Virus record (IMG/VR): IMGVR_UViG_3300029720_000024
Length of the DNA: 46,964 nt
Reading direction: 5' to 3' (one strand)
Origin: a virus
Part shown: piece by piece, positions 5,429 to 30,236 of the stretch
Numbering within the stretch: position 1 is the first letter of the stretch
Layout: every line of letters starts with the position of its first letter
The notes under the pieces: model-generated
The model's input: only the letters and a program-made list of their open reading frames with translations
Databases searched by the model: none
What the model was told of the DNA's origin: nothing
Program-made: the position numbers and the translations under genes

Positions 5429-5433
5429 GCCGC

Positions 5434-15987: not shown

Positions 15988-16000
15988 TTTAAAAAAGAAA

Positions 16001-16029
16001 TTGCATATTCTAAAGTGACGTGGTAATAT
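16001..16029 (+). promoter_or_regulatory. Rightward switch promoter: TTGCAT, 17-nt spacer, TAATAT
   Basis: TTGCATattctaaagtgacgtggTAATAT. The operator half site lies in the spacer. Confidence 0.55.
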
Positions 16030-16048
16030 ATAACCGAGGTGATGATAA

Positions 16049-16381
16049 ATGACCCTTGGCGATAAAATACGGGAGTTGAGAAGGGCCGCCGGGCTTACCC
16101 AGGGTGATTTGGCGAAGATGCTCAACACGACAAAGCAGACCATAGGGAAGTACGAACAGGGCATTGTATCTAATCTTCCTTTGTCTCGAATTGTCGAGCT
16201 TGCCAATGCGCTCAACACCAGTCCCGCCTATTTGATGGGCTGGACAAACGAACGACGCCGAATGAACCAAAGTGTGAGGATTGAGGCGATTATGAACAAT
16301 TTGGACGAGAGCGAGCAGCTTCAGCTTTTATCTTATGCTGAATTTCTAATGCAGCAGCATAAGAAAAAAGAAGGTCGGTAG
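16049..16381 (+). CDS. XRE-family repressor (CI-like, no peptidase domain)
   Basis: MTLGDKIRELRRAAGLTQGDLAKMLNTTKQTIGKYEQG. Confidence 0.8.
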   Translation: MTLGDKIRELRRAAGLTQGDLAKMLNTTKQTIGKYEQGIVSNLPLSRIVELANALNTSPAYLMGWTNERRRMNQSVRIEAIMNNLDESEQLQLLSYAEFLMQQHKKKEGR

Positions 16382-16439
16382 CTTCCGGATCGTGCTTTAA
16401 CTGTTCAACGATTGCAAGAATTTGTTCCCGCGTTGTCAT
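16290..16439 (-). CDS. Small hypothetical protein (49 aa), convergent with and overlapping the repressor 3' end
   Basis: Hand translation gives MTTREQILAIVEQLKHDPEATDLLFSYAAALEIQHKIKAEAARSRPNCS, with GGAGG 8 nt before the ATG. Confidence 0.4.
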   Translation of the reverse strand: MTTREQILAIVEQLKHDPEATDLLFSYAAALEIQHKIKAEAARSRPNCS

Positions 16440-16741
16440 CTATTCTACCTCCAAACACTTGTTCTGTTTTGATAATAACACGTTAGATTCAAAAAGAAAG
16501 GGGGAATTTGTATGAGAGTACCATAAACGGGACTGCGCTCGCCGATGTTGCACAAATCGTGCCTCAAATTTAATCGGCAGGGGCGATTTCTCACCCCCGC
16601 CTAAGACGGTGGAGAAGCATCGGGGAACCGTCCTGAATAAAGCATAGCATTTATGCCGCTCAAATCAAATACTCATAAAATAGCATTCGCTAACATTCTT
16701 GTTTTTTCGCCATAAATAAATGAAGAAGGTGATACCCATTG

Positions 16742-17137
16742 ATGTTATATGAGCGTTTACGCGCCATGAAAGGCGATATGACGGCGCAGCAGATAGCGGA
16801 CAAAAGCGGCGTACCCGTTGCCACGGTAAACCGTGTGCTTCAGGGCTTAACGGAAAATCCGGGGTTTGATACGGTCTACAAACTGGTAAAGGCCATGGGC
16901 GGGAGCCTGAACGATCTGGACGAGGATAGGGTGTGTGAGCCGGAAGGATCGACGCAGCTATACGAAAGAGGGTTAGAGTACAGGGAGCGGAAGATAGAGG
17001 ATTTGGAGCAGAAGATAAAGAAGCTGGAACGCATAAAAGCTATAATAGTGGTATCTATCCTTATAGCAATGGTAGTGGCAATGGGCTTATTGGTATATGA
17101 CATAATGCACCTCGATAGAGGGTGGATAATAAAATAA
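16742..17137 (+). CDS. Membrane-tethered XRE-type HTH protein (HTH, coiled coil, C-terminal TM helix)
   Basis: MLYERLRAMKGDMTAQQIADKSGVPVATVNRVLQG.., ..KIEDLEQKIKKLE.. and IIVVSILIAMVVAMGLLVY. Confidence 0.65.
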   Translation: MLYERLRAMKGDMTAQQIADKSGVPVATVNRVLQGLTENPGFDTVYKLVKAMGGSLNDLDEDRVCEPEGSTQLYERGLEYRERKIEDLEQKIKKLERIKAIIVVSILIAMVVAMGLLVYDIMHLDRGWIIK

Positions 17138-17229
17138 AGAATCCCCCGTGCCGAATTAGAGGGCGGCAACAGGGGATAAGGCGGATGCTTCTCCGCCTCC
17201 GATTTTAACACAACGGGAGGTTTTTGTAA

Positions 17230-18339
17230 ATGGCAAGGCAAAGTGACGGCAGATACCGGGCTAAAGTCACCGTCGGGCGGGCTGACGGCAAGAGCATAGT
17301 AAAGTACGTTTCCGGGCGCACAAGAAAGGAGCTGGAGGCCGCGAAGGAGGCGGTCAGGCAGGAGTTCATCACCGGGCGCACCGCACAGAAGGACGCGCTT
17401 TTCGGCCCATACGCCATACAGTGGTATAACGTCTACAAAAAGCCGAGCATAAAGGAATCGGCACAGAGCGGATATAAGACGGCACTCAACAAGCACATAT
17501 TGCCTGTTCTGGGGGACAAGCGGCTCACCGCAATATCCACTATGGACTTGCAGGAGCTGCTTAACTCCAAGGGCGATATGTGCGTAACCATAATCGAAAA
17601 TGTACACCATGTGTTAGAATCCGTCTTTAAGCGGGCATACTCCGAGGGGATAATCCAGCGGGACGTGACCGTGGGGCTGGTCAAGCCCACGAAAGAAAAG
17701 TCAAGCCGCCGGGCACTGACGGAAGCGGAGGAAGCGGCGGCAAAGAAGTTGATGCAGGAGGAAAACGGCCTGCTGGTGGCATTGCTATACTATACCGGAA
17801 TGAGGCTCGGTGAAGCCCTCGGCCTGCAATGGGAATGTGTAGATTTCAAGAAGAATGTCATACACGTCCGGCAGCAGGTCAATTTAAGGAAGGGCATGAT
17901 AACCCCGCCCAAGACGAAGGAGAGCATACGGGATATACCCCTGCCGGACGAGCTGGCGGAAATGCTCGTGCGGGGATTCCCGCAGGCGTTTGTATTCCCC
18001 GCCCCCGATGGAACATACTACCGCAATTCCTCTTCAAATAGGCTATGGCGTTCGCTGATGGAGCGCATGGCAGAGTTGGGGCCCGACATAGAAACGAGAG
18101 AGGACGGCGCCTCCGTCCTCACGCCGCACTACTTCCGGCACAATTACGCCTCCATACTCTATAATGCCGGCGTTGACGTGCTTTCTGCGCAGAAATTCCT
18201 CGGCCATGCCAACGTAAAGGTGACGCTTGAAATTTATTCACACCTTTCAAAGGAAAAAGAGGACGCAAGCGCGGGCGCAGTTATGGACGCTTTCAAAAAA
18301 AGGTTGCCGGAAAGTTGCCAGAGCAAAAGCACAAAATGA
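17230..18339 (+). CDS. int: Tyrosine recombinase / phage integrase
   Basis: ..ALLYYTGMRLGEALGLQW.. and ..HYFRHNYASILYNAGVDVLSAQKFLGHANVKVTLEIYSHL. Confidence 0.9.
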   Translation: MARQSDGRYRAKVTVGRADGKSIVKYVSGRTRKELEAAKEAVRQEFITGRTAQKDALFGPYAIQWYNVYKKPSIKESAQSGYKTALNKHILPVLGDKRLTAISTMDLQELLNSKGDMCVTIIENVHHVLESVFKRAYSEGIIQRDVTVGLVKPTKEKSSRRALTEAEEAAAKKLMQEENGLLVALLYYTGMRLGEALGLQWECVDFKKNVIHVRQQVNLRKGMITPPKTKESIRDIPLPDELAEMLVRGFPQAFVFPAPDGTYYRNSSSNRLWRSLMERMAELGPDIETREDGASVLTPHYFRHNYASILYNAGVDVLSAQKFLGHANVKVTLEIYSHLSKEKEDASAGAVMDAFKKRLPESCQSKSTK

Positions 18340-18552
18340 GCACAAGCAATCAAAAAAGCCCTAAATACCTAAGAAAAACGCCCGTGCAGCACGAGCGTTT
18401 TTGATGTTTGGTATCCGGCGGCTACCCGTTTTTTATTCAATTCCTTGCAGTTTCTCGTCCGTAAAAAGCGGCTGTTTATCTATATTTTCCGTTTGCGCTC
18501 GTTTTAGGGTTTGAAATAAAAGGTTGCCAGAAAGTTGCCGGAAGGTTGCCAG
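18295..18552. repeat. Two blocks of 11-bp-phased RGTTGCCR repeats flanking the int terminator (candidate attP arm sites)
   Basis: aaaaggttgccggaaagttgccag at 18298-18321 and aaaaggttgccagaaagttgccggaaggttgccag at 18518-18552. Confidence 0.5.
18374..18403 (+). terminator. Rho-independent terminator after int
   Basis: AAAAACGCCCGTgcagcACGAGCGTTTTT: one stem mismatch, followed by a T-run. Confidence 0.6.
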
Positions 18553-18984
18553 TTACGCAGTAAAATATTTTTCAACCTTGAAATCCTTACCGTCTATATC
18601 GTTAATGAAATCTTTTGCAAGGCTGAAATAAAACTCCGGGTCTTCTCCCCTGCCTACCATTTCGGCGGTATCATGGCTGTCGTTGTAGTACATATTCATG
18701 CACAGATAGTATTTGCATACCGCCGTTATTCCCTTCGTCGCCAGAAACGCCTTGATGGTATCATAGTCCCATTTTTGACCGTATGGGCGCATACCCTTGA
18801 CTATCTGCCGCGCCTCTTCGGGAGTTATCCGATATGCTATTTCTTCGAGGCAATACATCGTTTCTCTGTACACCTCCGGCAGACGGTCCTTTACCGTGTG
18901 CATCATATCAGAGAGCGCATCGGTCACTTCTGCCATATCGGTGTGCCTTTCGGATATCAGGCGTATGATCTCCTTAAAGCTCAT
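18553..18984 (-). CDS. Hypothetical protein (cargo module)
   Basis: 143-aa ORF whose TAATG start overlaps the upstream stop. Confidence 0.55.
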   Translation of the reverse strand: MSFKEIIRLISERHTDMAEVTDALSDMMHTVKDRLPEVYRETMYCLEEIAYRITPEEARQIVKGMRPYGQKWDYDTIKAFLATKGITAVCKYYLCMNMYYNDSHDTAEMVGRGEDPEFYFSLAKDFINDIDGKDFKVEKYFTA

Positions 18985-19364
18985 TACTCTGCGCCTCCGT
19001 TAATGCTTGCAAGGCTGTTGGTGAGTGCGCAAGTTTTATTGAGCAGTTTAAAGCTGCCGCCCGTGGTGTTGGTCTTGACGATGGTAGCATACCTGGTGCG
19101 GGTGCGTATGGCGCAGGCTGTGACCTGGGCGCAGCAGCTATCTATCAGCGGGTACTGTTCCGTGCCGGCGCCTATGGTGACAAACACGGGCGCGGTTATA
19201 GTGGTAGCCGCCGGGATAGACTGAGCTACCACGATGCAGTATTTCTGATTATCGTTATAGTTGCCTGCCGGGAGGTTGATTATCAGCCCGGTTCCCGCCG
19301 TGAAGGTAACGGCCTGGGAGATTATAAGGTTGGGGCAGAGTTTGCATACATTTTTACAAGCCAT
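18984..19364 (-). CDS. Cys-rich hypothetical protein (126 aa, 8 Cys)
   Basis: MACKNVCKLCPNLIISQAVTF..DSCCAQVTACAI.., with AAAGGAGC before the ATG at 19364. Confidence 0.55.
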   Translation of the reverse strand: MACKNVCKLCPNLIISQAVTFTAGTGLIINLPAGNYNDNQKYCIVVAQSIPAATTITAPVFVTIGAGTEQYPLIDSCCAQVTACAIRTRTRYATIVKTNTTGGSFKLLNKTCALTNSLASINGGAE

Positions 19365-19434
19365 TTTTATTATGCTCCTTTCGAAAATCAAGGGGCAGCA
19401 TACGCCGCCCCGATATATCACGGCATAGCCGGAA

Positions 19435-20016
19435 TTAGCAGCAGCAGCCGCAATTATTACCACAGAAGGGAGAGTTCCCCGCGTTGTAGGTGTAACCGTT
19501 GGGATAGCGGACTACTCCGTACATGCGGTTATCCATCTCAAGGCTGGACACTTTGTCCCTGAGAGCCTGCATTTCGTTCGCCTGTATCAGGGAGCGGGTG
19601 GCCTCGGCCTCGGCGTGGATAGCGGTGGTTATGTCGCAGGTGTTCTGGTTCATCTGCGCTGAGAGGTTGGCTATACCGAGCCTCTGTTCACAGCAGCAGT
19701 TTGCAAGCTGGTTGGACAGGTTCCGGCCTTCGGTGGTGATAGCGTTGTTCAGCGCGAAGGTGGAATCACATATACCGTTGCCGATGTTAGTCAAGCGGTC
19801 ATTGATCTGGCCGAAGTGCTGACCGAAGAGAATTTCCTGCTGAGACGCAGCGGTGGCATACTGTCCAAATTCGCCCTGGCGGTTCCAGCCGCCAAAGCCG
19901 CCGCCCATCATAGCAAAAAGTATGATAAGGGCGAATATCCAGAAGCCTCCGTTGAAGCCGTCAGTCTTGCCATCAGTTACCGCGGCTATATCCGCGAGAG
20001 AGGGCATATTATCCAT
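19435..20016 (-). CDS. Hypothetical membrane protein with a Cys-rich C-terminus (193 aa, 10 Cys)
   Basis: TM segment FWIFALIILFAMMGGGFGGW, ..LANCCCEQR.., a coiled-coil-like middle, and a C-terminal FCGNNCGCCC. Confidence 0.55.
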   Translation of the reverse strand: MDNMPSLADIAAVTDGKTDGFNGGFWIFALIILFAMMGGGFGGWNRQGEFGQYATAASQQEILFGQHFGQINDRLTNIGNGICDSTFALNNAITTEGRNLSNQLANCCCEQRLGIANLSAQMNQNTCDITTAIHAEAEATRSLIQANEMQALRDKVSSLEMDNRMYGVVRYPNGYTYNAGNSPFCGNNCGCCC

Positions 20017-20073
20017 AGTTCTAAAGTTCCTTTCGATTTATATTCCAATCCCGCGCGCGCTTCGGGTAATGGT

Positions 20074-20286
20074 CTACCTTAATTCAGAAAGAATATCCTC
20101 GGGGTCTATCCCGTATTGCTTGCAGGCCGCATAAAACATCTGTTTAGGGTCGCCGTTGCCTATCATCTGCTTTATCTTCTGTATTTGTCCGGGAACGGAC
20201 ATCATCTGTTTAGCCTGCGCTATCATTTGTGGGTTGAGTTTCCTCGGACTTCCTCCGCTTAGCATTTGTAGTATCGGGTTTGGCAT
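20074..20286 (-). CDS. Small hypothetical protein
   Basis: GAGGAA lies 7 nt before the ATG at 20286. Confidence 0.45.
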   Translation of the reverse strand: MPNPILQMLSGGSPRKLNPQMIAQAKQMMSVPGQIQKIKQMIGNGDPKQMFYAACKQYGIDPEDILSELR

Positions 20287-20626
20287 TTATCATTTCCTCC
20301 AATCTGGCTATTCTCTGTTCAAGGCCGTTCACATCGACAGGCGGAGCGGGTTTATACGGGGTTATGCTGTAAGGCGAGAGAGAGGGGAACCCCGCCCCGT
20401 CCGTTGTTTTAAGCCACACTATGGGGGCCGTTTCGTCCAACAGAAGAACGGAGCTATTAGGGGGCATTTGATATGCCTTTGCGCCGCCCTCGCCGTTCAC
20501 TTTGACTACTTCGGTTCGCTGATATTGGGTTTGCTGGTTAAAATAAGGTTGGTATGGATACACTGTTTCACGCTCCCTTCTACCTGAATTTTGGCATAAA
20601 AAAAGAGCCGATAGGATTGCTCCCAT
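20210..20626 (-). CDS. Hypothetical protein (Q-rich N-terminus). The start may be the GTG at 20563.
   Basis: ..YPYQPYFNQQTQYQRTEVVKVNGEGGAKAYQMPPNSSVLLLDETAPIVWLKTTDGAG. Confidence 0.5.
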   Translation of the reverse strand: MGAILSALFLCQNSGRRERETVYPYQPYFNQQTQYQRTEVVKVNGEGGAKAYQMPPNSSVLLLDETAPIVWLKTTDGAGFPSLSPYSITPYKPAPPVDVNGLEQRIARLEEMINAKPDTTNAKRRKSEETQPTNDSAG

Positions 20627-20640
20627 CGGCTATTTATCGG

Positions 20641-20874
20641 CTATTTACAGTGCGTTTTCAGTTGTTTTTCGGCAGCCTTGCACCGCCTTCGTATCTGGTC
20701 ATATTCAAGGGGTATTTCAAATTTAAGCTGGTACTCGCCCGTTAAAGCGTCGTATGATATCCCGTCTAAAAGGCGGCGGGTTATCAGCCAGCGGTCTTTT
20801 TCGTTATGTATCCATTCGTGTATGAGTGCTTCCCATTCCGTGCGTGAACGGGAATTAAGCAATGCTTTATCCAT
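20641..20874 (-). CDS. Sigma-70 region-4-like small regulator
   Basis: ..EALIHEWIHNEKDRWLITRRLLDGISYDAL.. matches a recalled pattern. The SD is weak. Confidence 0.4.
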   Translation of the reverse strand: MDKALLNSRSRTEWEALIHEWIHNEKDRWLITRRLLDGISYDALTGEYQLKFEIPLEYDQIRRRCKAAEKQLKTHCK

Positions 20875-20913
20875 TTCAAAGGGGCCCGCTTCTCCAAAAG
20901 CCTATACCTCCTT

Positions 20914-20944
20914 TATAAAAATGCGCCCCCCAATTAAGGGGGGC
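20914..20944 (-). terminator. Strong rho-independent terminator after the lysis cassette
   Basis: The minus strand reads GCCCCCCttaattGGGGGGC followed by gcaTTTTTAT. Confidence 0.75.
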
Positions 20945-20970
20945 TATTGAAAGGGAATCCCATCCGGGGG

Positions 20971-21171
20971 CTACTGTTTGTTGTAGTTTGCCGAGGATAT
21001 GCCCAGCACCGCGCCCAGGAACGTGTCAACGGCGGTGATAGTGCCGACGATCTCCTCAGGATAGGGGAGGTTCCAAATACCCGCAAGGGCAAAATAGAGG
21101 GTGCCTATGGCGGGGAGCCAGATCAGGGCGATTGCCTTGAGAATGTCGTATACCTTGTTCGAGAGTTTCAT
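20971..21171 (-). CDS. Holin (two TM helices)
   Basis: MKLSNKVYDILKAIALIWLPAIGTLYFALAGIW..IVGTITAVDTFLGAVLGI, with AAAGGAGG before the ATG at 21171. Confidence 0.7.
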   Translation of the reverse strand: MKLSNKVYDILKAIALIWLPAIGTLYFALAGIWNLPYPEEIVGTITAVDTFLGAVLGISSANYNKQ

Positions 21172-21184
21172 GTTTTTTCCTCCT

Positions 21185-21484
21185 TTAATTGTTGTGTGCT
21201 TCAAGCCTGTCCAGCCGGTGGTGGGCGCTTTTCGTGCTTTCTTCCACACGAGCCACGCGGAGGTCTATGTCCTCAATTTTGGTGGCCTGCGCCCGCATAT
21301 CGAGTTTGATATCGTCCACGCCGCGCTTGATGTAGTCCACGTCCGATTTAAGCGCGGTGTCAATGGCGGTGTCGCGTGTCGCCGCGTCAACCGCGTCCTT
21401 TCTTGCGGTCTTTATGTGAGCCAGCCAGCCCAGCAAAATGCCGCTCAAGCCTGTGACTATTGCCCATATCCATTCTTTGGTCAT
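21185..21484 (-). CDS. XhlA-like coiled-coil membrane protein (lysis accessory)
   Basis: N-terminal TM segment IWAIVTGLSGILLGWL, then ..RVARVEESTKSAHHRLDRLE. Confidence 0.5.
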   Translation of the reverse strand: MTKEWIWAIVTGLSGILLGWLAHIKTARKDAVDAATRDTAIDTALKSDVDYIKRGVDDIKLDMRAQATKIEDIDLRVARVEESTKSAHHRLDRLEAHNN

Positions 21485-21496
21485 GGGTGCTCCTCC

Positions 21497-22267
21497 TTAT
21501 TTTTTTAGTGTGCCTACATAGATTTTGCCGTCCACGGATACGGTAGCCTGCAACACGTTCGGTAGCTCTGTCGGTGTCATGCTGTGTGCCTGTGCAAACC
21601 GCTGTATAGCCGCAATGGTGTTTTTACCGGCTATGCCGTCCGCGTCCCCCGCGTCATAGCCCAGAGCGTTAAGGGCGGTCTGCAATGCCTTGATATCGTC
21701 GCCCCTCATCATGGGGCTCGTCAGGGTTATGATCTTCCGCTCCTTTACCTCCTCCTTTTCTTCCTCATGCTGGAGCAGGGCAAGCCGCCCCCAGTGCGTC
21801 CAGTTGCCATCGGACAGTTTGCGCTTGCATACGCCATCGTCGCGGCCTTTCGCCTCTATGGTGTAGCCGTCGCCGACGTATACGCCGACGTGAACCATTT
21901 TCTTGCTGCTTTCGCTGTACTTGAATACGAGGTCGCCCGCCAACATGGGGGTTTTCCCGGCGTAGCCCCTGTTTTCGCCGCACATACGGTAAAGCCCCTG
22001 GGCGTTGGTGTCGCCCTTCATCCAGTGCTTTATGTCGCTGATGTAGTGTACGATGAGGCCGGAACAGTCGAACGCGTAGAGAGGCCGTTTTTCGGCCTTC
22101 TCCATGAATTTCACGGCGCGGTTGTAATTCGTGTCGCTGGTTTCGCGCCGTTCTATCCATGCGTAGGGGTCGCTCATGCTGTCAACCTGCTGCCCCTGCG
22201 CACCCCAGACGTACATATCCCCGACATGACTTTCGAGGTATTCTATGAAGCCTGTTACTCTGCTCAT
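21497..22267 (-). CDS. Endolysin: NlpC/P60 (C40) peptidase plus a PG_binding_1 domain
   Basis: YVWGAQG..FDCSGLIVHY..GDLVF..HVGVYVGDGYTIEA, and a C-terminal DIKALQTALNALGYDAGDADGIAGKNTIAAIQRFQ-like segment. Confidence 0.85.
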   Translation of the reverse strand: MSRVTGFIEYLESHVGDMYVWGAQGQQVDSMSDPYAWIERRETSDTNYNRAVKFMEKAEKRPLYAFDCSGLIVHYISDIKHWMKGDTNAQGLYRMCGENRGYAGKTPMLAGDLVFKYSESSKKMVHVGVYVGDGYTIEAKGRDDGVCKRKLSDGNWTHWGRLALLQHEEEKEEVKERKIITLTSPMMRGDDIKALQTALNALGYDAGDADGIAGKNTIAAIQRFAQAHSMTPTELPNVLQATVSVDGKIYVGTLKK

Positions 22268-22818
22268 TTGCGTTTACCTGCCACCGCGAGGCCGAATCCT
22301 ATCAGGGCTATGGATACCGCATACGCGAGGACGGAGGCGCCGCCGGTCTTGGGTATCACCACGGGATTTTTTGCAATGGGCTGTTCGGCGGGCTGCGCGG
22401 CGTTAAAATAGTAGGTTTTGCTTACAGTCCTGTTTTTCTGCATGGCGTTGTAGAGTTCTTCTGCCGTGGTGGCGTTGTCGTAGGCCTTGTCCTTGACGGT
22501 TATACGGAGGGCGGCGGGCTGGTCGGTAACTATGCCGCTCAGGTAATATGTGCCAGCCTCCAATCTCATGTCGTTTGCGTCCAGCTTTACGCCGTCCAGC
22601 TCCACAATAAGCTCCATATCGGTCAGGTCGTAAAAACGGGGTATGCCCAGGTCAACCTTGAGTAGGAAAAGCTCATTGTTGACGTAGGTTTTGGATACCG
22701 CCTTGCCGGTCTGGTAGTCCAGCGCGGTTATATCCAGAGTTACGGGGTCTGCGGCGTAGGCTATGGTGCAAAGGCACAGCATGAGCATTACCGCGAGGAT
22801 ACAAGTGAGTTTTTTCAT
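22264..22818 (-). CDS. Secreted, probably sortase-anchored surface protein (xPKTG sorting signal)
   Basis: Signal peptide MKKLTCILAVMLMLCLCTIAYA and C-terminal IPKTGGASVLAYAVSIALIGFGLAVAGKRK. Confidence 0.65.
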   Translation of the reverse strand: MKKLTCILAVMLMLCLCTIAYAADPVTLDITALDYQTGKAVSKTYVNNELFLLKVDLGIPRFYDLTDMELIVELDGVKLDANDMRLEAGTYYLSGIVTDQPAALRITVKDKAYDNATTAEELYNAMQKNRTVSKTYYFNAAQPAEQPIAKNPVVIPKTGGASVLAYAVSIALIGFGLAVAGKRK

Positions 22819-22835
22819 AATGTTTTCCTTTCTTT

Positions 22836-23090
22836 TTAGAGTTTTATGCAGCGGTTCTCGAACTTCTTATATGCATCGAGGTACACTTCGTTTTTGTCGC
22901 CGTTGCAGGTGACCTCGTAATACATACCATCGGGGAGTGTGGTGGATACCAGTGCCTTCCAGTTCTGGAGGGTCTTGCAGTGCCAAACAACATAAGTATC
23001 AGTCATGTTGATCTCTATGCCGTCTGTTTTGTCGAGGTGCTCGTTTACATAATCTCTAACGATTTCACGAGCTTTGAGTGTGTAGTCCAT
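22836..23090 (-). CDS. Hypothetical protein (DUF6275-like)
   Basis: 84-aa ORF with an AAGGAAAA RBS, sitting behind a terminator. Confidence 0.5.
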   Translation of the reverse strand: MDYTLKAREIVRDYVNEHLDKTDGIEINMTDTYVVWHCKTLQNWKALVSTTLPDGMYYEVTCNGDKNEVYLDAYKKFENRCIKL

Positions 23091-23128
23091 AATTCTTTTC
23101 CTTTCTTTATTTTTGTTTTTTAATTATG

Positions 23129-23149
23129 AAAAAAGAGCCGTGCGGCTCC
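23129..23149 (-). terminator. Rho-independent terminator after the fibre genes
   Basis: The minus strand reads GGAGCCgcaCGGCTC followed by TTTTTT. Confidence 0.65.
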
Positions 23150-23566
23150 TTATTCCGTGTATTCGCTCCATTTGGAGCTGCCCGCCTTGGGCTTGTAGAC
23201 GGTGGACTTGATGTGCTGCTCGGTGCATTGCCACGTTTTGCCGTTGTAGGTAACTATGGTGTTTACCTCAATCACCGTGCCGTCCTCGATGTCGCCCCAC
23301 GCGGGATAGGTCACGGTCTGCACCGCCCAATATGTGCCGAGGTTTGCGGCAGGGGGCTTGTTGCGGCTGTATTTAAGAGCGACATATCCACCCTCAACCG
23401 TATCCCCTGCTATATAGCGGGTCTCAGCGTCCCACGGTGCGCCCTGCGTGGGGGTGGGAGTAAGCCCCGCCCGCGCCGCTGTCAGCACCTCTACAAGGTC
23501 GGTCTCGTGCGCCTCGATCTCCGCTTTACGCACGGCTACCAGCGCCATAAGTTCACTGCGCGTCAT
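23150..23566 (-). CDS. Fibre-associated protein with two CBM5/12-like carbohydrate-binding repeats
   Basis: ..APWDAETRYIAGDTV.. and ..VTYNGKTWQCTEQHIKSTVYKPKAGSSKWSEY. Confidence 0.55.
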   Translation of the reverse strand: MTRSELMALVAVRKAEIEAHETDLVEVLTAARAGLTPTPTQGAPWDAETRYIAGDTVEGGYVALKYSRNKPPAANLGTYWAVQTVTYPAWGDIEDGTVIEVNTIVTYNGKTWQCTEQHIKSTVYKPKAGSSKWSEYTE

Positions 23567-24354: not shown

Positions 24355-24969
24355 TTATATTGGTATCGTGAGTGTTACGTAGCCGTCGCCACCTTTTTGA
24401 GCCGTACCGCTTGTTGGAGTGTTCGAAGTTTTCCCTTCTCCACCATTAGGCGCACCCCCTGGAGCGGTTTGGTATGCACCAAACTTAGCATCACCATTTA
24501 ATCCATTAGGTACGCCTCCAACTCCACCATAAGCATGTTGGTGGTTGTCAGAGCAGTTCACGTTAGCACCCTTGCCGCCCGTTGTTGTTATCCCAAAGGC
24601 AATCGTATCGCCACCATCCGATGCAATTACAGCATAATTTTGCTGACTACTATTTCCAGCACCACCCGCACCTATGATAATATCATATACACCAGCAATA
24701 ATTTTCATTTTAACTGTTTGATGCCCGCCGCCACCACCACCGCCACAACCCAATGTCCCAACATTGTACGCAGCAGCGGATACACCCCCACCGCCACCAG
24801 CCAACAGGTAAACATCAGCCATAACCGAACCGCTGACATTCAGTGTGCCAGAAGATGTAAGTTTTATAACGCGCTTTGAGCCTTCTATCTTGTCCGTAAA
24901 TTGGCCTGTGTAGGTAAACTCAAAAGCGCCGCCGCCACTCATCAGCCTCCTTCGTAGCATACCTATCAT
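24355..24969 (-). CDS. Glycine-rich fibre/receptor-binding-region protein
   Basis: ..[32 protein letters not shown]... Its ATGA start overlaps the collagen-like gene stop. Confidence 0.6.
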
Positions 24970-27476
24970 GCGCTCACAACCTCCTGTACTGCCCACACGC
25001 CATTGTATACGTCAAATTCATAGGTCTTGCTTGCCTCTATTGCCGGGGCCGCGCCCATAAATGTGCCGCTAAATGACACTGATACACTACTACCCGTAGT
25101 AAATTTACCGTGCGCCCAGCCGGATGTTGGCGGGGTAAACACATACGTACCCACAGGAGAGGATACGTTATATATGGTATTTGCCGTCAGCGCCGCGCCG
25201 CTGGCGGGGAGGGAGGAAGCTATAACAGGCGGGGTCAGATAGTCCACGCCGCCCTCGGCCTGCGCCACCTTGCCGCCCGCGCCCTTGAGCAGGCCGTTAA
25301 TGCTGGTCGCGGTATCGGCGGTTATCTCGTTAGGGCCAGCGGGGCCCTGTTCGCCCTGTGCGCCAGTGTCGCCTTTCGCTCCCGTGTCGCCCTTTGCCCC
25401 CTGCGGGCCTTTGATGCTGACGCTTGCGGGGTTATCCAGCCCGCCGTTATTTGTCCATGAGAGTATGCCCTCGGCAGAGACAGCGGGGGTAAAATACGGC
25501 CCGGTGTCGCCCTTGGGGCCGTCCGCGCCCTTGGGGCCTTGGATACCCTGCGGGCCTTGCTCGCCCGTATCGCCCTTCGCGCCGGGGTCGCCTGTCGCGC
25601 CTTTTTCGCCTGTCGCGCCCTGCGGGATGCCGAACTCAAAATCAAATACCTTTGCGGTGTCCGCGCCGCTTGCCGTTACCTTTACGGTGGCGGCGGCTCC
25701 GGCGGCGAGGGTGTTTACCGTGGCGGTGGGCGTGCCAAACCCTGCGGCTGTGCCGGGGTCGCCTTTTGCGCCGGGGTCTCCCTGCGGGCCTTGCTCGCCC
25801 TGTATGCCCTGTTCGCCCTGTATGCCCTGCTTGCCTTGTATGCCCTGCGGGCCTTGCTCTCCGGCGGGGCCGCGCTCACCCGTGAGGCCCTGCTCTCCCT
25901 GCGGGCCTTTTATGTTGGCGTCGGGGGGATTAGCGAGACCGCCGTTATTGCTCCATGATATAACGCCCTCGGCGGATACCGAGGGGGTAAAGTAGGGGCC
26001 GGGGTCGCCCTTTGCTCCAGCGTCTCCTTTCGCTCCCTGATCTCCCTTTGCGCCCTGCTCACCAGTCGCACCCTGTTCGCCCTTGGGAACGCCGAACTTA
26101 AAGGCGAATACCTTCGCGGTATCTGCGCCGGAAGCTGTTACCTCTACAGTAGCGGGGGTTCCCGCGTCAAGGGTGGTCGCCGTAGCGGTAGGTGTGCCAA
26201 ATCCGGCGGCTTCGCCCGTGGGGCCTTGTTCGCCCCTTGCTCCCGTGTCGCCCTTCGCGCCGGGGTCTCCCTTGGGGCCCGTATCGCCTTTAGGGCCAGT
26301 GGGGCCTTGCTCACCTTTTGCGCCCTGCAAGGGGCCGTTGTTTACCCACTTGGAATTTACGCCGTCCCAGATATATATATCATACGGTTCGCCCGCGCCC
26401 ACGCCGTAAGCGTCGCCAGCGGAGGGGTTAGATACTCCGGCTTGTAATGCGGAGAGGGAAGCGTAATAGCCCAACACGGCAAATCCTTCGCCCGTATCGC
26501 CCTTGGCTCCCTGTGCGCCCTGTGGCCCCCTTATATTGACTGTGGCGGGGGTTTCCAGCCCGCCGTTATTACTCCACGATAAATCGCCGTCAGCGGTCAC
26601 AGAGGGCGTATAGTGCGCTCCTGCGGGGCCTCGTTCGCCCGTGGCTCCCGTATCGCCCTTGGGGCCCGTTTCTCCCTTATCTCCGGGGTCGCCTTTAGGG
26701 CCTTGGATACCCTGCTCACCCTTGGGGCCAGCGGGGCCCGTTTCTCCTGCGGCTCCTGTGTCGCCTTTATCGCCTTTCTTGCCTTCGGGGCCTTGGGGGC
26801 CGACGGGGCCAGCGTCGCCCTGCAAGCCTTTCTTGCCCTCCGGGCCTTGTGGGCCGATAGGGCCTTGCTCACCACGGGGGCCTTGCAAGCCTTGTATACC
26901 CTGTTCGCCCTTGGGGCCTACCGCGCCCTGTTCGCCCTTGGGGCCTTGTATTCCTGCGGGGCCTTGTACACCCTGCGGGCCTTGGGGGCCTGTGGGGCCT
27001 ATTTCACCCTGCGGGCCTGTGGGGCCTGTCGCGCCTAACGCCTGGGATACTAATTCCTGCACCTCGGCAAGAAGCTGTTCCGCCACACTGGGGGTGGGAA
27101 GGTTGGAACCGGGAAGGTCGGCTATTATCTCAATGGGCCGCGTTCCCGTCCACTTGGCTATGATGTTCTTCTCATCGTTCGCCAGAGTGGCTAAAAGCGT
27201 GAGGTTCATCATGCCCCGCTTGCCCGTAAACAGCGGCGTGATATGCCATGTAAGGGTTATATCTTCCCCCACATCTTTATACAGCACATACCTTGCTTCC
27301 GTGCCGTCCATGGGCCAATACGCCTTTATGGTGAACCCTGCGGCGGCAAGGTCTACGTCACGGGCATCTAAGGGTATGCTGATAGTGACGGTATCCGCCA
27401 GACTTTCACCCTCGATAACAAGGGACTGTATAGGGGTGGTGAGAAGATACTTTCCGTCAACCGTTATTCTGTGCAT
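24966..27476 (-). CDS. Collagen-like tail fibre / baseplate upper protein (BppU-like N-terminus, G-X-Y tracts, repeated globular modules)
   Basis: Long [16 protein letters not shown].. tracts, three [20 protein letters not shown] modules and two [22 protein letters not shown] modules. Confidence 0.8.
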
Positions 27477-27613: not shown

Positions 27614-27951
27614 ATATCCGTAGCTCCTTTAAATCTGTCATCATGGGTTTTGATATAGTTATAAACAACCTGATACAACGTTTGCCCTTCGAGAGCGGAC
27701 GGGCTAAAATAGTCAGTGTAATCGGTCGAGTTTTCGCCATACTCTTCAGAAGGATAAACGATGTCCTCTACTCGAATCTTCACCGCCGCGAAAGTTATAG
27801 GATTTGCACCCGCCAGCCGTGCTTCCTGCGAAAAATAAGGATTGACTGTCGCGTCAACCCTTTTGTTTACTCTGTCTATCTTAACATCATCTATTACCCA
27901 ATAATTTACGGGAACGCCCTCTTTTGTAGTTTTAGGTAGATACAACGCCAT
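27610..27951 (-). CDS. Hypothetical baseplate-region protein
   Basis: 113-aa ORF in operon context. Confidence 0.5.
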   Translation of the reverse strand: MALYLPKTTKEGVPVNYWVIDDVKIDRVNKRVDATVNPYFSQEARLAGANPITFAAVKIRVEDIVYPSEEYGENSTDYTDYFSPSALEGQTLYQVVYNYIKTHDDRFKGATDI

Positions 27952-30193
27952 ATCTTTCCTCCAATGCTGATAATCTCCGGTTTAAGTCCTGCACATAAGG
28001 CAATAACAACTTGGGCAATCCGCCCTCGTAATCAACGGCGCACGGGACATCTTTGCCATTGATTTTTTCGGTTATAGCGAGTTCGGGGCATACCTTATAG
28101 ACTTCTTCGGCTATAAGCCCGTAATCCTGCTTACCACTGGATTTCCATGTGAACTTACGGGGACGTAGAGCGTTCACTTTTGCTATACAATCCAACCCCG
28201 CATCTTGAATATTCTCCTTGCGGCGTATCGAGGAGGAAGCATAGCCTATATATCCTCCGTCTGATGCCGCCCATCGTAGCGTATAAGTGTTGACAGAATA
28301 ATCATAAATTTGATCACATTGCAGATAACCTTTAGTAAATATAGTAGCACCGGCGTTAATAGAATAATCAACTCCCAGCGTAACAAGCCCGCTTTTTTGG
28401 CCTGACAGGGTTATTTGACCAAGCTTTAACTTACCTCCACTTTGCCCTGAGTACAGCGAACAAGTATTGCCTTCAAGGTAACTGCCGTGTATATCGAATC
28501 CCGCAATCGTACCGCCTGATGCATTAAGGTTGCCGGTGGTCACTGTGCCGCTTATGGTGGCGTTTACGCACGTCATCTTGCCGTTTGTATCTATCTTGAA
28601 GTTGTTGTTCGCCGTGACAACGCCGTTAAGGTTTATCTTTGACGCGCTTATTGATACCGCTTCCGAGCTTTGATTTATGGTGGAAATAATATTGTCCTTG
28701 GTGACGGTGCTCGACAATCCCTCGGCGGTTATTTCAAGCTGTGTCTGCATATTCTGCGTCCATGTGGTAGGCATACATACGGTGTTATCTACCACCCACG
28801 CCGAGCCAGTGTAACGCTTTATTTCCTTTGTCGAGGGATTGTACCAGTATTCGCCCTCCTTTGCGCCCGTGGGCGTGGCGGTCTGGTTGTATTTAGGGGA
28901 GATGACCGTCTGCCACGCGGAACCCGTCCATACCTTTATCTTGCCATCGTTGTACCATTGATACCCCGTATTCGCGGTTTTCTGGTCATCGTCCCACCCT
29001 AAAGAGGGGTCGGTGTCGGATTCAACAGGGGTCAGGAAAGCTACCCGTGTGACCGTCTGCTTCATTCCCTCAACGGTCATTTCTATTTCATGGGCTGCGC
29101 GTCCGGCTATGAGCGTCCGGCGGTTCTCCGCGCTTATGGCGGGGCGCAGAGGGGAGCCGGAGCTTATGTACTGTATCCTTGCCCTGCCCTTAAAGGTCAA
29201 GTCCATGCGGTAAATGGGGAAGGTATAAGTCCCATCGTCCGTGACTACCTTTATCATGTCGCCTGCTTCCAAAGACCAATCGCCCTTTGCGTCCAGCTCG
29301 ACAGGCGTAAACGCCGCAAAGGAGTTTAAGCGGTTATAGATAACCTCTGCATAAGGTCTTATCTGTGCATCGGTATAGCCATACAGCATAGGGCAGTCTA
29401 TTATTTGATAAGCGTTCGTCCCCGTGCCGACTATTACGCCTATGTCCTTTTCGGACGCGGCTACTTGTAATTTGTCTATCTTGGCTACCTGATACTCCGA
29501 TACCACGGCGTTATAATAATCCGCGGAATTGGCGGTCTTATTAAAGGTGACATTGGTATTGGCGAACCACGCCAGTTCACATACTCCGCTTCGGGATATG
29601 CGGGCAAAGGAACACGCCGCCTCGGCTATCCATTGAAGAACTTCCCGGCATAGAACATCTTGCGTCCTGAACAGCGGCGAATCAAAGGTTTTCCCCGAAT
29701 TGGGGAAGTCTGCTATTGAAGCAGGTACGCCGACATGAGCGCAAAGCGATGTAAAAATATTTTTTAGTGTAGTCGGGTACGAAAGAGAATTAAGAAAAGC
29801 ATCTGCGCTCACATCGAACTTTACCATTCTGTCATGGGCGGTGATGCTTATTTTTTTAGGTTTAAGTTTGTCGGGCTTTTCGGAGATAAACACGCCCAGA
29901 GGAACATATTCGTATTCTTCCCCCACGAGTACGCCTATCGAGGCGGTGAACTCCGTGCCGTCAAAGTTAAAAGAGGACAGCCCCCCGTCAAAGTTAAGGA
30001 GTTCTATCCCCAGTTCTGCGGAACAGGCCGCGCCTATCGTCAGTTCTTCGTCCTCGAAAGCCATGCTTGAATAGGTCAAGCCGGAGATAGAGAGGTTTTG
30101 TTCCGCTATCTGATTTTCGCCGAATGTCAGTTTTAGCTTTTGGGGCTTGCCCGACATTACGGCATTACGAAAGCCTGTGCTTACTGTATACAT
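27932..30193 (-). CDS. Tail-associated (Tal-like) protein with a C-terminal S74-type intramolecular chaperone domain
   Basis: Position after Dit. C-terminal ..YASSSIRRKENI..LRPRKFTWK..DYGLIAEEV... GGAGG before the ATG at 30193. Confidence 0.7.
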   Translation of the reverse strand: MYTVSTGFRNAVMSGKPQKLKLTFGENQIAEQNLSISGLTYSSMAFEDEELTIGAACSAELGIELLNFDGGLSSFNFDGTEFTASIGVLVGEEYEYVPLGVFISEKPDKLKPKKISITAHDRMVKFDVSADAFLNSLSYPTTLKNIFTSLCAHVGVPASIADFPNSGKTFDSPLFRTQDVLCREVLQWIAEAACSFARISRSGVCELAWFANTNVTFNKTANSADYYNAVVSEYQVAKIDKLQVAASEKDIGVIVGTGTNAYQIIDCPMLYGYTDAQIRPYAEVIYNRLNSFAAFTPVELDAKGDWSLEAGDMIKVVTDDGTYTFPIYRMDLTFKGRARIQYISSGSPLRPAISAENRRTLIAGRAAHEIEMTVEGMKQTVTRVAFLTPVESDTDPSLGWDDDQKTANTGYQWYNDGKIKVWTGSAWQTVISPKYNQTATPTGAKEGEYWYNPSTKEIKRYTGSAWVVDNTVCMPTTWTQNMQTQLEITAEGLSSTVTKDNIISTINQSSEAVSISASKINLNGVVTANNNFKIDTNGKMTCVNATISGTVTTGNLNASGGTIAGFDIHGSYLEGNTCSLYSGQSGGKLKLGQITLSGQKSGLVTLGVDYSINAGATIFTKGYLQCDQIYDYSVNTYTLRWAASDGGYIGYASSSIRRKENIQDAGLDCIAKVNALRPRKFTWKSSGKQDYGLIAEEVYKVCPELAITEKINGKDVPCAVDYEGGLPKLLLPYVQDLNRRLSALEERYGVVST

Positions 30194-30203
30194 TTTGCCT
30201 CCA

Positions 30204-30227
30204 ATAAAAAAGACACCCGAAGGTGTC
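30204..30227 (-). terminator. Rho-independent terminator downstream of the moron
   Basis: The minus strand reads GACACCttcgGGTGTC followed by TTTTTTATT. Confidence 0.75.
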
Positions 30228-30236
30228 ACGGAGTAT

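Follow-up and report, generated by a model that had tools for sequence, protein, structure and literature searches.

A widespread gene cassette of gut phages with a conserved four-gene core, an intercistronic hairpin and exchangeable flanking genes

The viral DNA analysed here (IMG/VR record IMGVR_UViG_3300029720_000024; 46,964 nucleotides, hereafter the window) was described in an earlier note, made from its letters alone, as carrying six minus-strand genes between the lysis cassette and the integrase and attachment region. All six frames, here g1 to g6, are present in the ORF list of the window where that note placed them. Upstream of the unit lie an NlpC/P60 endolysin (21497-22267) and a Dp-1 holin (20971-21249), and downstream of it a tyrosine integrase (17230-18339, plus strand) and XRE repressors. 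The placement is borne out in the window and corresponds to the attR-proximal end of integrated prophages: in integrated copies with an identical g4, seen at three different sites in hosts, no further phage DNA separates the unit from the host genes. A terminator-like hairpin on the minus strand (20925..20944; seven G-C pairs, a loop of six, then GCATTTTTAT) ends the late (lysis) operon. At the other end, an inverted repeat between g6 and the convergent integrase (18374..18402; 14-nt arms AAAAACGCCCGTGC / GCACGAGCGTTTTT) is likely a bidirectional terminator closing the unit, and the last cassette gene of two related loci, L001 and L079, has a terminator at the equivalent position. Positions 16000-23500 hold 19 terminator-like sites, compared with 8.4 +/- 3.4 in shuffles, and the two hairpins already proposed, the late terminator (20944-20925) and an attenuator-like element (19411-19392), were both found in place and rank among the strongest.

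The first gene, g1 (20641-20874, minus strand), encodes a 77-aa helix-turn-helix (HTH) protein of a sigma-70 region-4-like family with the pattern EWExLIxxWIxNExDRxxxxRRLLDG... The window's own protein has no Pfam match at E<1, and no Shine-Dalgarno sequence lies immediately 5' of its ATG. Homologues collected from related loci by iterated HMM search reach Sigma70_r4 at 31.5 bits, above the gathering score of 24.1, with others weaker, and positional analogues match Sigma70_r4_2 (28.6 bits) or GerE (32.4 bits). At the level of the family, a sigma-region-4-like HTH gene adjoins the unit. Ten nucleotides past the g1 stop codon lies T1 (20606..20631, minus strand; 11 pairs, tail CTTTTTTTAT), a third strong hairpin, absent from the earlier description, which separates g1 from g2. 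Roughly half of the diverged loci examined have a T1-like hairpin 3' of the regulator gene, and in L001 the T1 counterpart abuts the g2 ATG; T1 may gate entry into g2-g4.

The Q-rich frame first listed at 20210-20626 (138 aa) is real, but its start has moved: T1 contains the ATG at 20626, so g2 most likely begins at GTG 20563, after AGAAGGGAG, giving a 117-aa protein (20210..20563, minus strand; MYPYQ...). This start agrees with the gene calls of near-identical contigs and with the consensus N-terminus of homologues. The protein, which matches phrog_21718 (E 4.7e-12), opens with a tail rich in Q, Y and P, continues into a small, conserved alpha/beta domain and closes with a helix that bears a basic tail. 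Its AF2 model (pLDDT ~95 across residues 20-90) predicts a core of a helix, a three-stranded sheet and a long helix; Foldseek against the PDB gave no significant match, the best being an AP2 DNA-binding domain (E 0.47, probability 0.75). Overlapping the last 77 nt of g2 is g3 (20074-20286, minus strand), a Q/M-rich helical protein whose 70-aa form is backed by conserved N-termini in diverged loci. Two sequence types occupy this slot, g3A and g3B, with N-termini that align at an hhalign probability of 68%; g3B matches phrog_22984.

The core protein is g4 (19435-20016, minus strand; 193 aa), which matches phrog_16490 and has one predicted transmembrane (TM) helix and a Cys-rich C-terminus, CGNNCGCCC. 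From N to C it consists of an acidic tail with a conserved SLxD, the glycine-rich TM helix, a helical domain that is rich in N, Q, T and S and contains the motif CCC, and the Cys-rich end. Its family comprises 4,753 homologues, counted as 90%-identity clusters, or 1,394 clusters at 50% identity, every one a stand-alone protein. Among 92 representatives the TM segment is strongly hydrophobic in all (mean hydrophobicity 2.06), the CCC motif occurs in ~75-80% and the C-terminal Cys cluster in 84-91%. g4 shows a hydrophobic periodicity of 3.65 residues, and its helical domain is 35% N/Q/S/T and 17% charged; the flanks of the TM helix carry net charges of -1.75 (N-tail) and -0.79 (C-flank), a weak topology signal. 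The window's exact g4 is indexed in 2,373 blocks of a public assembly collection, and g4 keeps ~70% identity among phages that carry another g5 family and integrases with ~22% identity to the window's.

Two hairpins follow g4 on the minus strand. A small CGGC-TAT-GCCG hairpin immediately past the stop codon (19421..19431) is the counterpart of an ACGCC-n4-5-GGCG-AGG motif that recurs in relatives, and T2 (19392..19411; GGGGCGGCgtatGCTGCCCC, 8 bp, seven of them G-C; tail TTGATTTTCG/TTGATTTT) lies immediately 5' of the g5 Shine-Dalgarno sequence. T2 belongs to no Rfam family. The attenuator-like hairpin of the earlier note is real: of 44 distinct g4-to-g5 intergenic sequences, 39 have a GC-rich hairpin and T-run behind g4, represented by 30 different hairpin sequences, and the diverged locus L001 repeats the whole three-hairpin layout. 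We read T2 as a putative intercistronic terminator or attenuator; it could instead be an antitermination target or a processing site.

Downstream of T2, g5 (18984-19364, minus strand) encodes a 126-aa beta protein from its ATG, the mechanical ORF extending to a GTG at 19463. Near its N-terminus stands C-x3-C-x2-C, C43 and C78 are further invariant cysteines, and its family numbers 5,314 homologues as 90%-identity clusters. The AF2 model, of moderate confidence (pLDDT 68.7), has eight strands and suggests a small beta-sandwich resembling the tip domains of phage fibres. Foldseek found nothing better than E 0.31 in the PDB; in BFVD it matched C-terminal parts of collagen-like/tail-fibre proteins (E 1e-5 to 1e-3, TMq 0.43-0.57), and the BFVD matches include a 294-aa crAss-like virus protein annotated "DUF7841 domain-containing". 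The window's g5 has no Pfam match, BclA_C (PF18573) included, and the alternative g5B type aligns weakly with BclA_C over its full length (E 2.8e-4 and 1.8e-3; 18.6-21.2 bits vs a gathering score of 38). The g5A and g5B types share a slot with no detectable mutual homology (hhalign probability 0.1%). The last gene, g6 (18553-18984, minus strand; 143 aa), overlaps g5 in TAATG, through which it is probably translationally coupled. Over residues 53-141 it matches DUF7841 (Pfam PF25223; E 1e-7, 32.6 bits vs a gathering score of 25.2), a family without known function of which we found no mention in the literature. Although g5A is followed by g6 in 56 of 56 loci, the fifth slot varies across the wider set, holding DUF7841 or ferritin-like helical proteins according to the g5 type; a 103-aa ferritin-like type has weak, sub-threshold matches to Rubrerythrin (E 0.053) and EncB/encapsulated ferritin (E 0.0078).

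Searches of Pfam, NCBIfam, PHROGs, PADLOC and PDB sequences, together with Foldseek, assigned no function to the proteins of the unit. In keeping with the earlier note, which recognised no characterised domain, they return only function-unknown families (phrog_16490, phrog_21718 and DUF7841), and no component has a characterised homologue. No annotated structural or lysis family, of the kind that the note took as refuting its reading, was matched in Pfam, PHROGs or NCBIfam; this lack of virion, lysis or defence matches agrees with a discrete unit apart from the virion and lysis genes. The suggestion of defence cargo was not supported: PADLOC-DB v2 yielded no significant match for any of the six proteins (best E 0.023-0.035, to unrelated models). 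The structure comparison proposed in the note, run on the g2 and g5 models, gave no PDB match and revealed no function. No Fe-S or metal-binding family was detected in the cassette proteins, and no DNA-binding family in components other than the HTH gene. On reading the sequences we found no signal peptide in g2, g3, g5 or g6 and no lipobox in any ORF neighbouring g4.

The order g2-g3-g4-g5 recurs in essentially all 105 related loci fetched, in that every locus with enough sequence shows all four genes, and g2 lies ~600 nt upstream of g4 in 101 of them. The conserved core is g2-g3-g4-g5, and the g6 slot and the regulator are exchangeable. The set travels together, with the same order and a post-g4 hairpin in diverged relatives, and with ~4,750 (g4) and ~5,300 (g5) clusters at 90% identity and 1,394 g4 clusters at 50% it is not the idiosyncratic cargo of one phage. 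The idea of cargo with its own regulator holds in part: an HTH gene does adjoin a discrete unit, but the unit is widespread and its regulator is exchanged among loci. The sources seen are all gut samples or gut anaerobe phages, and the hosts named for relatives are Clostridia MAGs.

Nor is the att-proximal slot a fixed place, since the cassette also occurs in inverted orientation beside early genes, within a cluster of head genes, and in phages of the crAss-like group. We count at least four distinct positions, in both orientations, in phage genomes of Clostridia. The cassette is directly downstream of lysis genes in the window, in loci L001, L004, L112 and L024 and in the crAss-like cr116_1, and away from them in L079, L115 and the C. 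perfringens phage CPD1, where it sits amid small early-type genes. In L112 it follows the late genes, and no integrase is nearby. L079 carries it inverted, as the only unit on the strand opposite all structural genes; an AT-rich promoter-like region of its own (a site upstream of g2) and an end terminator come with it, and phages of this type have no integrase within the 20 kb examined. The head-gene cluster of bajarodcaudo virus 2 encloses the cassette, which shares its strand and is flanked by the portal on one side and scaffold/capsid genes on the other. Versions centred on g4 occur in cr116_1, just before the capsid genes, and in a Bacteroides phage, and replication or recombination genes adjoin the cassette in CPD1, L079, L112 and the Bacteroides phage. 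crAss-like phages usually lack integrases. With its own terminator-like hairpins and variable position, the unit resembles an autonomous accessory cassette of the moron kind. In the window, no sigma-70-like site was found upstream of g1 or g2 and the gaps from the late terminator to g1 and from T1 to g2 leave no space for a promoter, so the unit may simply be read through from the late operon.

How these parts might work together can be set out tentatively. The reading we favour, as possible and still short of probable, is that the unit is an autonomous accessory cassette, shuffled horizontally among gut phages and lying outside the virion and lysis machinery, whose products assemble into a stalk with a head, anchored in the membrane and probably serving to exclude superinfecting phages or to modify the envelope. 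Transcription would cross the hairpin past the HTH gene and then the conserved attenuator past g4, so that g2-g4 would be made in excess over g5-g6. The abundant component would be g4, a single-pass membrane protein whose N/Q-rich amphipathic helical stalk ends in a cysteine cluster; g5 would be a fibre-tip-shaped beta-sandwich with a cysteine-rich end of its own, g2 and g3 soluble partners carrying low-complexity Q-rich segments, and g6 (DUF7841) the occupant of an exchangeable helper slot. Joined by their cysteine-rich ends, through metal or disulfide, g4 and g5 may form a stalk-and-head complex that acts at the host membrane in phage-phage competition, via superinfection exclusion or a related change to the envelope.

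Several observations sit uneasily with this reading. By homology, none of the components is tied to exclusion, to defence or to changes of the cell surface. The superinfection-exclusion proteins that are known usually come as single, fast-evolving genes, and g4, unlike them, is unusually conserved. Because g2, g3, g5 and g6 have no signal peptide, an external spike would be hard to assemble. In two phages the cassette is on the same strand inside or beside the capsid genes. The window unit could be expressed by late-operon read-through, and the g5 model reaches a pLDDT of only 68.7.

Some of these observations suit a late-expressed morphogenetic or virion-associated fibre, with g4 as trimeric stalk, g5 as tip and g6 as tip chaperone. 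The BFVD matches of the g5 model and the weak BclA_C matches of g5B would fit such a fibre, as would weak matches of the g4 profile to trimeric-autotransporter stalk fragments (E 0.3-5) and the co-variation of tip and helper slots, like that of tail-fibre tips and chaperones; the same-strand sites in bajarodcaudo virus 2 and cr116_1, and a window unit reachable only through late-operon read-through, point the same way. We nevertheless judge it quite unlikely, given the TM-type segment in all g4 representatives, the L079-type cassette standing alone on the strand opposite all structural genes, the strong terminator between unit and holin, PHROG matches that carry no structural annotation, and a complete tail set already present in the window phage, with a collagen fibre and an S74-chaperone fibre among its parts.

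A cytoplasmic complex, suggested by partners that all lack signal peptides, could be a scaffold on the membrane's inner face tethering phage DNA or replication/assembly factories, as phi29 p16.7 does, with g4 as anchor and g2 as nucleic-acid-binding adaptor; it could help to maintain non-integrated genomes, and the cassette's presence in the usually integrase-free crAss-like phages and beside replication/recombination genes in four phages agrees with this. The acidic g4 N-tail weakly favours an N-out/C-in topology, and g2 has a basic C-tail and the AP2 domain as its top PDB match. That match is not significant, however, no DNA-binding family was detected in any component but the HTH gene, and neither the fibre-tip-like g5 nor the swapping of g5 types is explained, which makes a scaffold decidedly unlikely.

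The six sites directly downstream of lysis genes invite a role beside holin and endolysin, as an envelope factor that sets timing or disrupts a further layer, loosely like a spanin. i-spanins are single-pass membrane proteins with a long helical domain and cysteines, a description that g4 shares. Clostridia, the named hosts of relatives, have no outer membrane, and this role is very unlikely given that no holin or spanin family was matched, that the strong terminator separates the unit from the holin and that L079, L115 and CPD1 carry the cassette elsewhere. A spanin pair proper was not found: g4 has the TM helix and helical domain, but no neighbouring ORF has a lipobox or signal peptide, a terminator lies between the holin and the unit, and in several phages the cassette is not lysis-adjacent.

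Lysogenic conversion offers a surface organelle instead: g4 and g5 would form an adhesin-like spike on the outside of the lysogen and change host-surface or mucosal interactions. The attR-proximal end of integrated prophages is a suitable place and the fibre-tip-like g5 a suitable fold, and the N/Q/S/T-rich, low-charge composition of the g4 helical domain is of a kind associated with extracellular fibres. Against such a spike, which is highly improbable, stand the missing export signals of g2, g3, g5 and g6, a g4 N-tail without the positive charges expected of a signal anchor, and the cassette's occurrence in crAss-like phages and in phages where the 20 kb examined contains no integrase. Least probable of all is metal or redox chemistry in strict anaerobes, in which g5 CX3CX2C and the g4 CCC and C-terminal CxCxC would bind Fe-S or zinc with ferritin-like helpers: the invariant or nearly invariant cysteines, the ferritin-like proteins in the fifth slot of many loci and the gut-anaerobe sources suit it, but the ferritin-like matches are sub-threshold, the slot is interchangeable with the unrelated DUF7841, no metal-binding family was detected, and the membrane anchor and fibre-tip fold are left unexplained.

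The favoured reading of a membrane-anchored complex can be carried further, to an unlikely but consequential form: a new modular phage organelle, common to gut phages of Bacillota and Bacteroidota, in which a cysteine-linked g4 stalk would carry interchangeable, fibre-tip-like g5A/g5B heads with matching helpers, and would recognise and block competing phages or other ligands at the cell membrane. This would be a new modular class of exclusion or recognition system, with specificity swapped as in receptor-binding proteins. Phage-phage exclusion or an envelope change, if borne out, would affect host-range prediction, competition among gut prophages and the design of phage therapy against C. perfringens. 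Should the cassette turn out to serve structure or replication instead, several large DUF/PHROG families would gain a function at once. A four-gene membrane-associated cassette this conserved, mobile and frequent in the gut viromes of humans and animals amounts to a sizeable portion of phage dark matter. The g4 family ranges over cultured C. perfringens phages and crAss-like phages, and the fixed gene order, conserved attenuator and swappable head genes provide a genetic handle.

Among known systems, intercistronic attenuators set subunit ratios past the major pilin gene of pap and fim operons; T2, whose counterparts recur in nearly all relatives, likewise lies between g4 and the g5 Shine-Dalgarno sequence, though it has no Rfam family and its role as an attenuator is putative. 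Subunits of Bacillus endospore appendages (Ena, DUF3992) are beta-sandwiches with a cysteine-bearing N-terminal extension and conserved body cysteines. The small predicted g5 beta-sandwich, with a disordered Cys-bearing N-terminal extension and body cysteines, is built alike, yet it has no DUF3992 match in Pfam and no Ena is among the best 50 of its 144 Foldseek PDB matches; because phages of non-sporulating Bacteroides carry the cassette, a spore-specific role is excluded as its general function. BclA and C1q-TNF-like tips of collagen-like fibres, and tail-fibre tips with chaperones, may share with g5 the small beta-sandwich that its model suggests; an exchangeable helper gene downstream is a further likeness. 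In contrast to BclA and collagen-like fibres, g5 is a free-standing protein of 126 aa, and the candidate stalk, g4, is separate, membrane-anchored and alpha-helical, not collagen.

Membrane superinfection-exclusion proteins (T4 Imm, lactococcal Sie2009, HK97 gp15 and TP-J34 Ltp) are likewise small, membrane-anchored and phage-encoded, and share with the cassette a predicted dispensability for particle structure and lysogeny-adjacent or early-type positions. The cassette differs from them in showing no sequence or profile similarity, in comprising four to six genes and not one, and in its highly conserved g4. Similar in layout are prophage morons, such as lambda bor and lom and the toxin or sie genes by Gram-positive lysis modules, which are also bracketed by terminators, attR-proximal past the lysis genes, variable in position among phage genomes and accompanied by a small regulator. 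Unlike morons, it also occurs in crAss-like phages and in phages without a nearby integrase, and it has no evident promoter in the window. It is also far more widespread and conserved than a typical moron, with thousands of clusters built around a fixed four-gene core.

The six genes between the lysis genes and the integrase are an autonomous, mobile, widely shared accessory cassette with an abundant membrane protein at its centre. All six ORFs described in the earlier note are present on the minus strand of the window between 20944 and 18553: g1, a small HTH regulator (20641-20874); g2, a Q-rich protein (20210-20563); g3, a 70-aa helical mini-protein rich in Q and M (20074-20286); g4, a TM and Cys-rich protein (19435-20016); g5, a Cys-rich beta protein (18984-19364); and g6, a 143-aa protein (18553-18984). 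The start of g2 is revised here: it is most likely GTG 20563, downstream of AGAAGGGAG, giving 117 aa, because ATG 20626 falls, on our reading of the sequence, within the second hairpin of the unit (20631-20606). The GTG start matches both the gene calls on near-identical contigs and the consensus N-terminus of homologues. The 3′ end of g2 is overlapped by g3, and a TAATG couples g5 to g6. At the g1 ATG (20874-20915) no Shine-Dalgarno lies immediately 5′; a strong AAAGGAGG is found 27 nt upstream, past which a TTG-initiated 37-codon ORF begins in another frame and overlaps the g1 start.

Searches for homologues of g4 returned 4,753 proteins at E<=1e-3 (90%-identity clusters) and, counted at 50% identity, 1,394 clusters, with stand-alone proteins in every case; g5 has 5,314 homologues. 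When ORFs of 105 loci fetched via g4 were searched with iterated HMMs, 101 of the loci proved to have g2 ~600 nt ahead of g4, and the conserved core is g2-g3-g4-g5. Two alternative sequence types, A and B, occupy the g3 and g5 positions, and the core is followed by a variable slot (DUF7841, a 103-aa rubrerythrin-like protein or a 186-aa ferritin-like protein) and an optional extra helical protein. DUF7841 follows g5A, the type of the window, in 56/56 cases. After g5B comes the ferritin-like protein in 22 loci, the rubrerythrin-like one in 14 and DUF7841 in 9. No homology was detected between g5A and g5B (hhalign probability 0.1%); g5B aligns over the full BclA_C profile, below threshold. Across loci with integrases ~22% identical to that of the window and with the other family of g5, g4 is still ~70% identical. 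The earlier reading of these genes as cargo stands insofar as they form a separate unit in a classical cargo slot beside a sigma-r4-type regulator, but they are a conserved and mobile cassette shared among gut phages, not cargo private to one of them.

The genes upstream of the unit code for an NlpC/P60 endolysin that also has a PG_binding_1 domain, for a 99-aa protein with a TM and a helical part, and for a Dp-1 holin; downstream, on the plus strand, come a tyrosine integrase and two HTH proteins of the XRE type. Long metagenomic contigs carry an identical g4 protein. On three of these the six-gene unit is the final phage DNA and host genes come next, at sites that are all different (an aminotransferase with VanW and RNase J; a PBP; a cyclase with rubrerythrin), and on other contigs the integrase follows as in the window; the placement of the unit between lysis genes and att/int had thus been correct. 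Three AAAGGTTGCCGGAAAGTTGCCAGA-like direct repeats (18295-18322 and 18515-18553), one within the integrase gene at its 3′ end, the other two in tandem right after the g6 stop, lie on either side of the int-g6 intergenic region. This region, of 220 bp, also contains an inverted repeat with 14-nt arms (18374-18402) between g6 and the convergent integrase. The elements probably represent arm-type sites of the integrase together with a bidirectional terminator around attP. In IMG/VR, many provirus contigs stop ~180 nt beyond g6.

Several other genes of the window were also inspected. A 184-aa ORF immediately upstream of the endolysin (22264-22818, minus strand), kept ahead of the endolysin in related prophages and without a Pfam match, has an N-terminal signal peptide, a hydrophobic segment, a C-terminal VIPKTG motif and a KRK tail. 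Cell-wall proteins anchored by sortase are laid out in this way, and the ORF may be another cargo gene, of a more classical kind, that modifies the surface from within the late operon. The 99-aa protein between endolysin and holin (21185-21484, minus strand) combines an N-terminal TM helix with a long charged helical region, is conserved in relatives and has no Pfam match. It is probably a second membrane protein associated with lysis, with a likeness to XhlA/BhlA seen by eye only. A 64% G+C island (24966-27476, minus strand) encodes a protein of 836 aa with collagen repeats (Pfam Collagen, E 1.6e-53, eight stretches) that is presumably a tail fibre. A Gly_rich_2 protein (24355-24996) follows it, and a 765-aa protein (27932-30229) bears a Peptidase_S74 intramolecular chaperone domain. 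A search of the rest of the window for paralogues of cassette proteins, for instance a tip resembling g5 on fibres of the phage itself, found none.

The unit contains three strong terminator-like hairpins on the minus strand, located after the Dp-1-type holin (20944-20925), 10 nt past the g1 stop (20631-20606) and between g4 and g5 (19411-19392). Terminator-like sites in the region 16000-23500 number 19, vs 8.4 ± 3.4 in shuffles, and these three rank among its four best. Since the distance to the g1 start is ~40 nt from the first hairpin, and that to the g2 start only ~34 nt from the T-run of the second, with no sigma-70-like site found ahead of either gene in the window, transcription would have to read through the hairpins. 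We infer either graded expression (g2-g4 above g5-g6) or antitermination control. Locus L001, diverged and with other lysis genes, shows the layout of the window: regulator, an 18-bp hairpin touching the g2 ATG, g2-g3-g4, hairpin, g5-g6, hairpin.

The hairpin after g4, earlier described as attenuator-like, proved to be real and to extend well beyond this phage: 39/44 distinct g4-to-g5 intergenic sequences carry a G+C-rich hairpin of at least 7 bp, then a T-rich run, then the Shine-Dalgarno of the next gene. These 39 comprise 30 different hairpin sequences and occur with both g5 types; they were counted sequence by sequence, as MAFFT/RNAalifold recovered just 6 pairs because the hairpins vary in length. 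A small hairpin 5′ of the main one also recurs (ACGCC-n4-5-GGCG-AGG; CGGC-TAT-GCCG in the window), and the 5′ arm of the terminator hairpin is often GGGGCGG. The two-hairpin element (19392-19431 in the window; loci L001-L105) thus reads small hairpin, G+C-rich terminator hairpin, GAAAGGA. It has no Rfam family, and Rfam searches of the region returned chance-level matches only. Because g4 and g5 types recombine independently, the element may double as a recombination joint.

Database searches assigned g6 to DUF7841, above the Pfam gathering score, and g4 and g2 to phrog_16490 and phrog_21718, both families of unknown function; source names are 'hypothetical protein' throughout, and none of the six matches NCBIfam. 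While g1 itself has no Pfam match, members of its family (EWExLIxxxIxNExxRxxxxRRxLDG...) hit Sigma70_r4 at 31.5 bits against a gathering score of 24.1, so that the earlier sigma-region-4-like call holds at family level; they also show a weak Mor match. Sequence-profile searches of the PDB with g4 (shallow and deep alignments), g5, g2 and g6 gave nothing significant, a g6 match to Tako8, a designed repeat protein, being spurious. Foldseek searches of g5 and g2 against the PDB gave no match better than E 0.3. In the literature searched, DUF7841 is unmentioned, and nothing relevant was found on CPD1, the crAss 'spike protein' or prophage BclA/C1q.

The g4 protein has an acidic N-tail with invariant S6, L7 and D9, a single glycine-rich TM segment (mean hydrophobicity 2.06 over 92 representatives), a very conserved juxtamembrane stretch (GQYATAASQQEILFGQ...) and a helical domain with 35% N/Q/S/T and 17% charged residues, whose hydrophobic period is 3.65 residues (power 37.9 vs 34.2, the 95th percentile of shuffles). 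Of the representatives, ~75-80% have a CCC motif and 84-91% a cluster of Cys at the C-terminus; charge bias would weakly favour an N-out/C-in orientation. Its PDB profile matches are weak (trimeric-autotransporter stalks, apolipophorin; E>0.2). The core of g2 (AF2 pLDDT ~95) consists of a helix, three strands and a long helix, with no significant PDB match (best, an AP2 domain, E 0.47). Invariant cysteines of g5 are C3, C7 and C10 (C-x3-C-x2-C), C43 and C78, and its AF2 model (pLDDT 68.7) has eight strands and disordered termini. An Ena-like pilus subunit was rejected for g5 (no DUF3992 match, no Ena structure among the 50 best of 144 Foldseek PDB matches). In BFVD, g5 first retrieved uncharacterised homologues and then proteins of collagen-like, tail-fibre and adhesin-stalk type, matched over their C-terminal parts (TMq ~0.5). 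Among the 150 best g4 representatives searched for domain fusions, all were stand-alone (~65-260 aa) and no informative fusion was found; the sole fusion hint comes from a crAss-like virus, whose 294-aa protein is named 'DUF7841 domain-containing' and was retrieved by the g5 fold in BFVD as well (TMq 0.57, rmsd 2.3). It hints at joint action of g5-like and g6-like domains.

In low-G+C cassettes (L108 8400-9149, L115 7423-7947) g5A is followed by a gene for a helical protein whose long middle part is of low complexity and rich in R/G/Y/D/S (RGG/RGY-like). Taken with the Q/N/Y/P-rich g2 N-tails and with g3, rich in Q and M, this gives the cassette an unusual abundance of low-complexity segments of prion-like type.

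The cassette occupies different positions in different phages. It stands after the lysis genes, adjoining int/att, in the window, L001 and L004; after the late genes, convergent with early genes and with no nearby integrase, in L112; inverted between the end of the late operon and the start of the early operon in L079 and L085; and at a prophage end adjoining host genes in L024. In L079, whose late operon terminates in an endolysin and a g1-like gene, it is the sole opposite-strand unit within 20 kb and comes with a promoter-like AT-rich region and a terminator at its end. In the cultured C. perfringens phage CPD1 (L110) it lies 3.4 kb past the holin among small early-type genes, with an HNH-like 216-aa ORF (CPD1_038, 5158-5808) inserted between g3 and g4; the record annotates an integrase, so we do not call CPD1 virulent. 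In bajarodcaudo virus 2 (L115) it sits within the head-gene cluster, portal to scaffold/capsid, with its own 92-aa HTH gene; there the g3-to-g4 gap (5613-6139) is ~500 nt without a convincing ORF, and the annotated g4 lacks its TM-coding N-terminus. Insertions seem to be tolerated at the g3/g4 junction. No copy outside a phage context was found among the loci examined. Matches in species-representative genomes are all on MAG contigs, the most credible being a 202-kb Dysosmobacter contig; as binning is inconsistent, an Oscillospiraceae host is only an inference.

A g4-centred version is present in Bacteroides phage C3_41T2LP and in crAss-like cr116_1, there after a holin and an L,D-carboxypeptidase and before capsid genes. 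Along with a phrog_16490 protein (E 1.8e-50), this version encodes a beta protein bearing Cys, a protein that combines beta structure with a coiled coil, and a small HExxH protein. Small HExxH companions beside the cassette (L113 5150-5497 and 7730-8125; L108 9207-9527; L111 7392-7856) are found in crAss-like, Bacteroides and some Clostridia phages and not in the window; they have a weak SprT-like match, and one is annotated as a PolyVal metallopeptidase.

The lysogeny-adjacent or early-type positions and the lone opposite-strand unit of L079 fit a role other than particle building or lysis. For this reason we tentatively favour a role at the membrane, in phage-phage competition (superinfection exclusion) or envelope modification. 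Of the rivals, a virion or morphogenetic fibre, which the g5 fold matches bring to mind, is unlikely, and an accessory to lysis, which the neighbouring endolysin and holin might suggest, is improbable. A membrane tether for phage DNA or factories, for which g4 would supply the TM segment, appears rather doubtful, and a surface organelle of lysogens has a low probability similar to that of the lysis accessory. Handling of metal or redox, to which the cysteines and ferritin-like neighbours might point, is the least probable of these. A sporulation or exosporium module, first suggested by the GerE-like regulator, Cys-rich proteins, BclA_C-like and ferritin/CotJ-like appearance and Q/Y/P-rich tails, is rejected as a general function, since the hosts of the crAss-like and Bacteroides phages carrying the g4-centred cassette do not sporulate. 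A known defence system is rejected, as none of the six proteins matched a PADLOC defence model.

As judged from sequence and predicted structure, the cassette falls outside every characterised system tested; it counts as new only provisionally, on the basis of absent matches rather than of a demonstrated mechanism. Its interchangeable partner of g4 is g5, which appears fibre-tip-like and comes with a helper, and the Cys-rich ends of both proteins are obvious candidates for the junction. Conservation of the stalk despite exchange of the heads, and co-variation of the helper slot with head type, suggest that the two form a complex with an exchanged specificity element, as in receptor-binding fibres.
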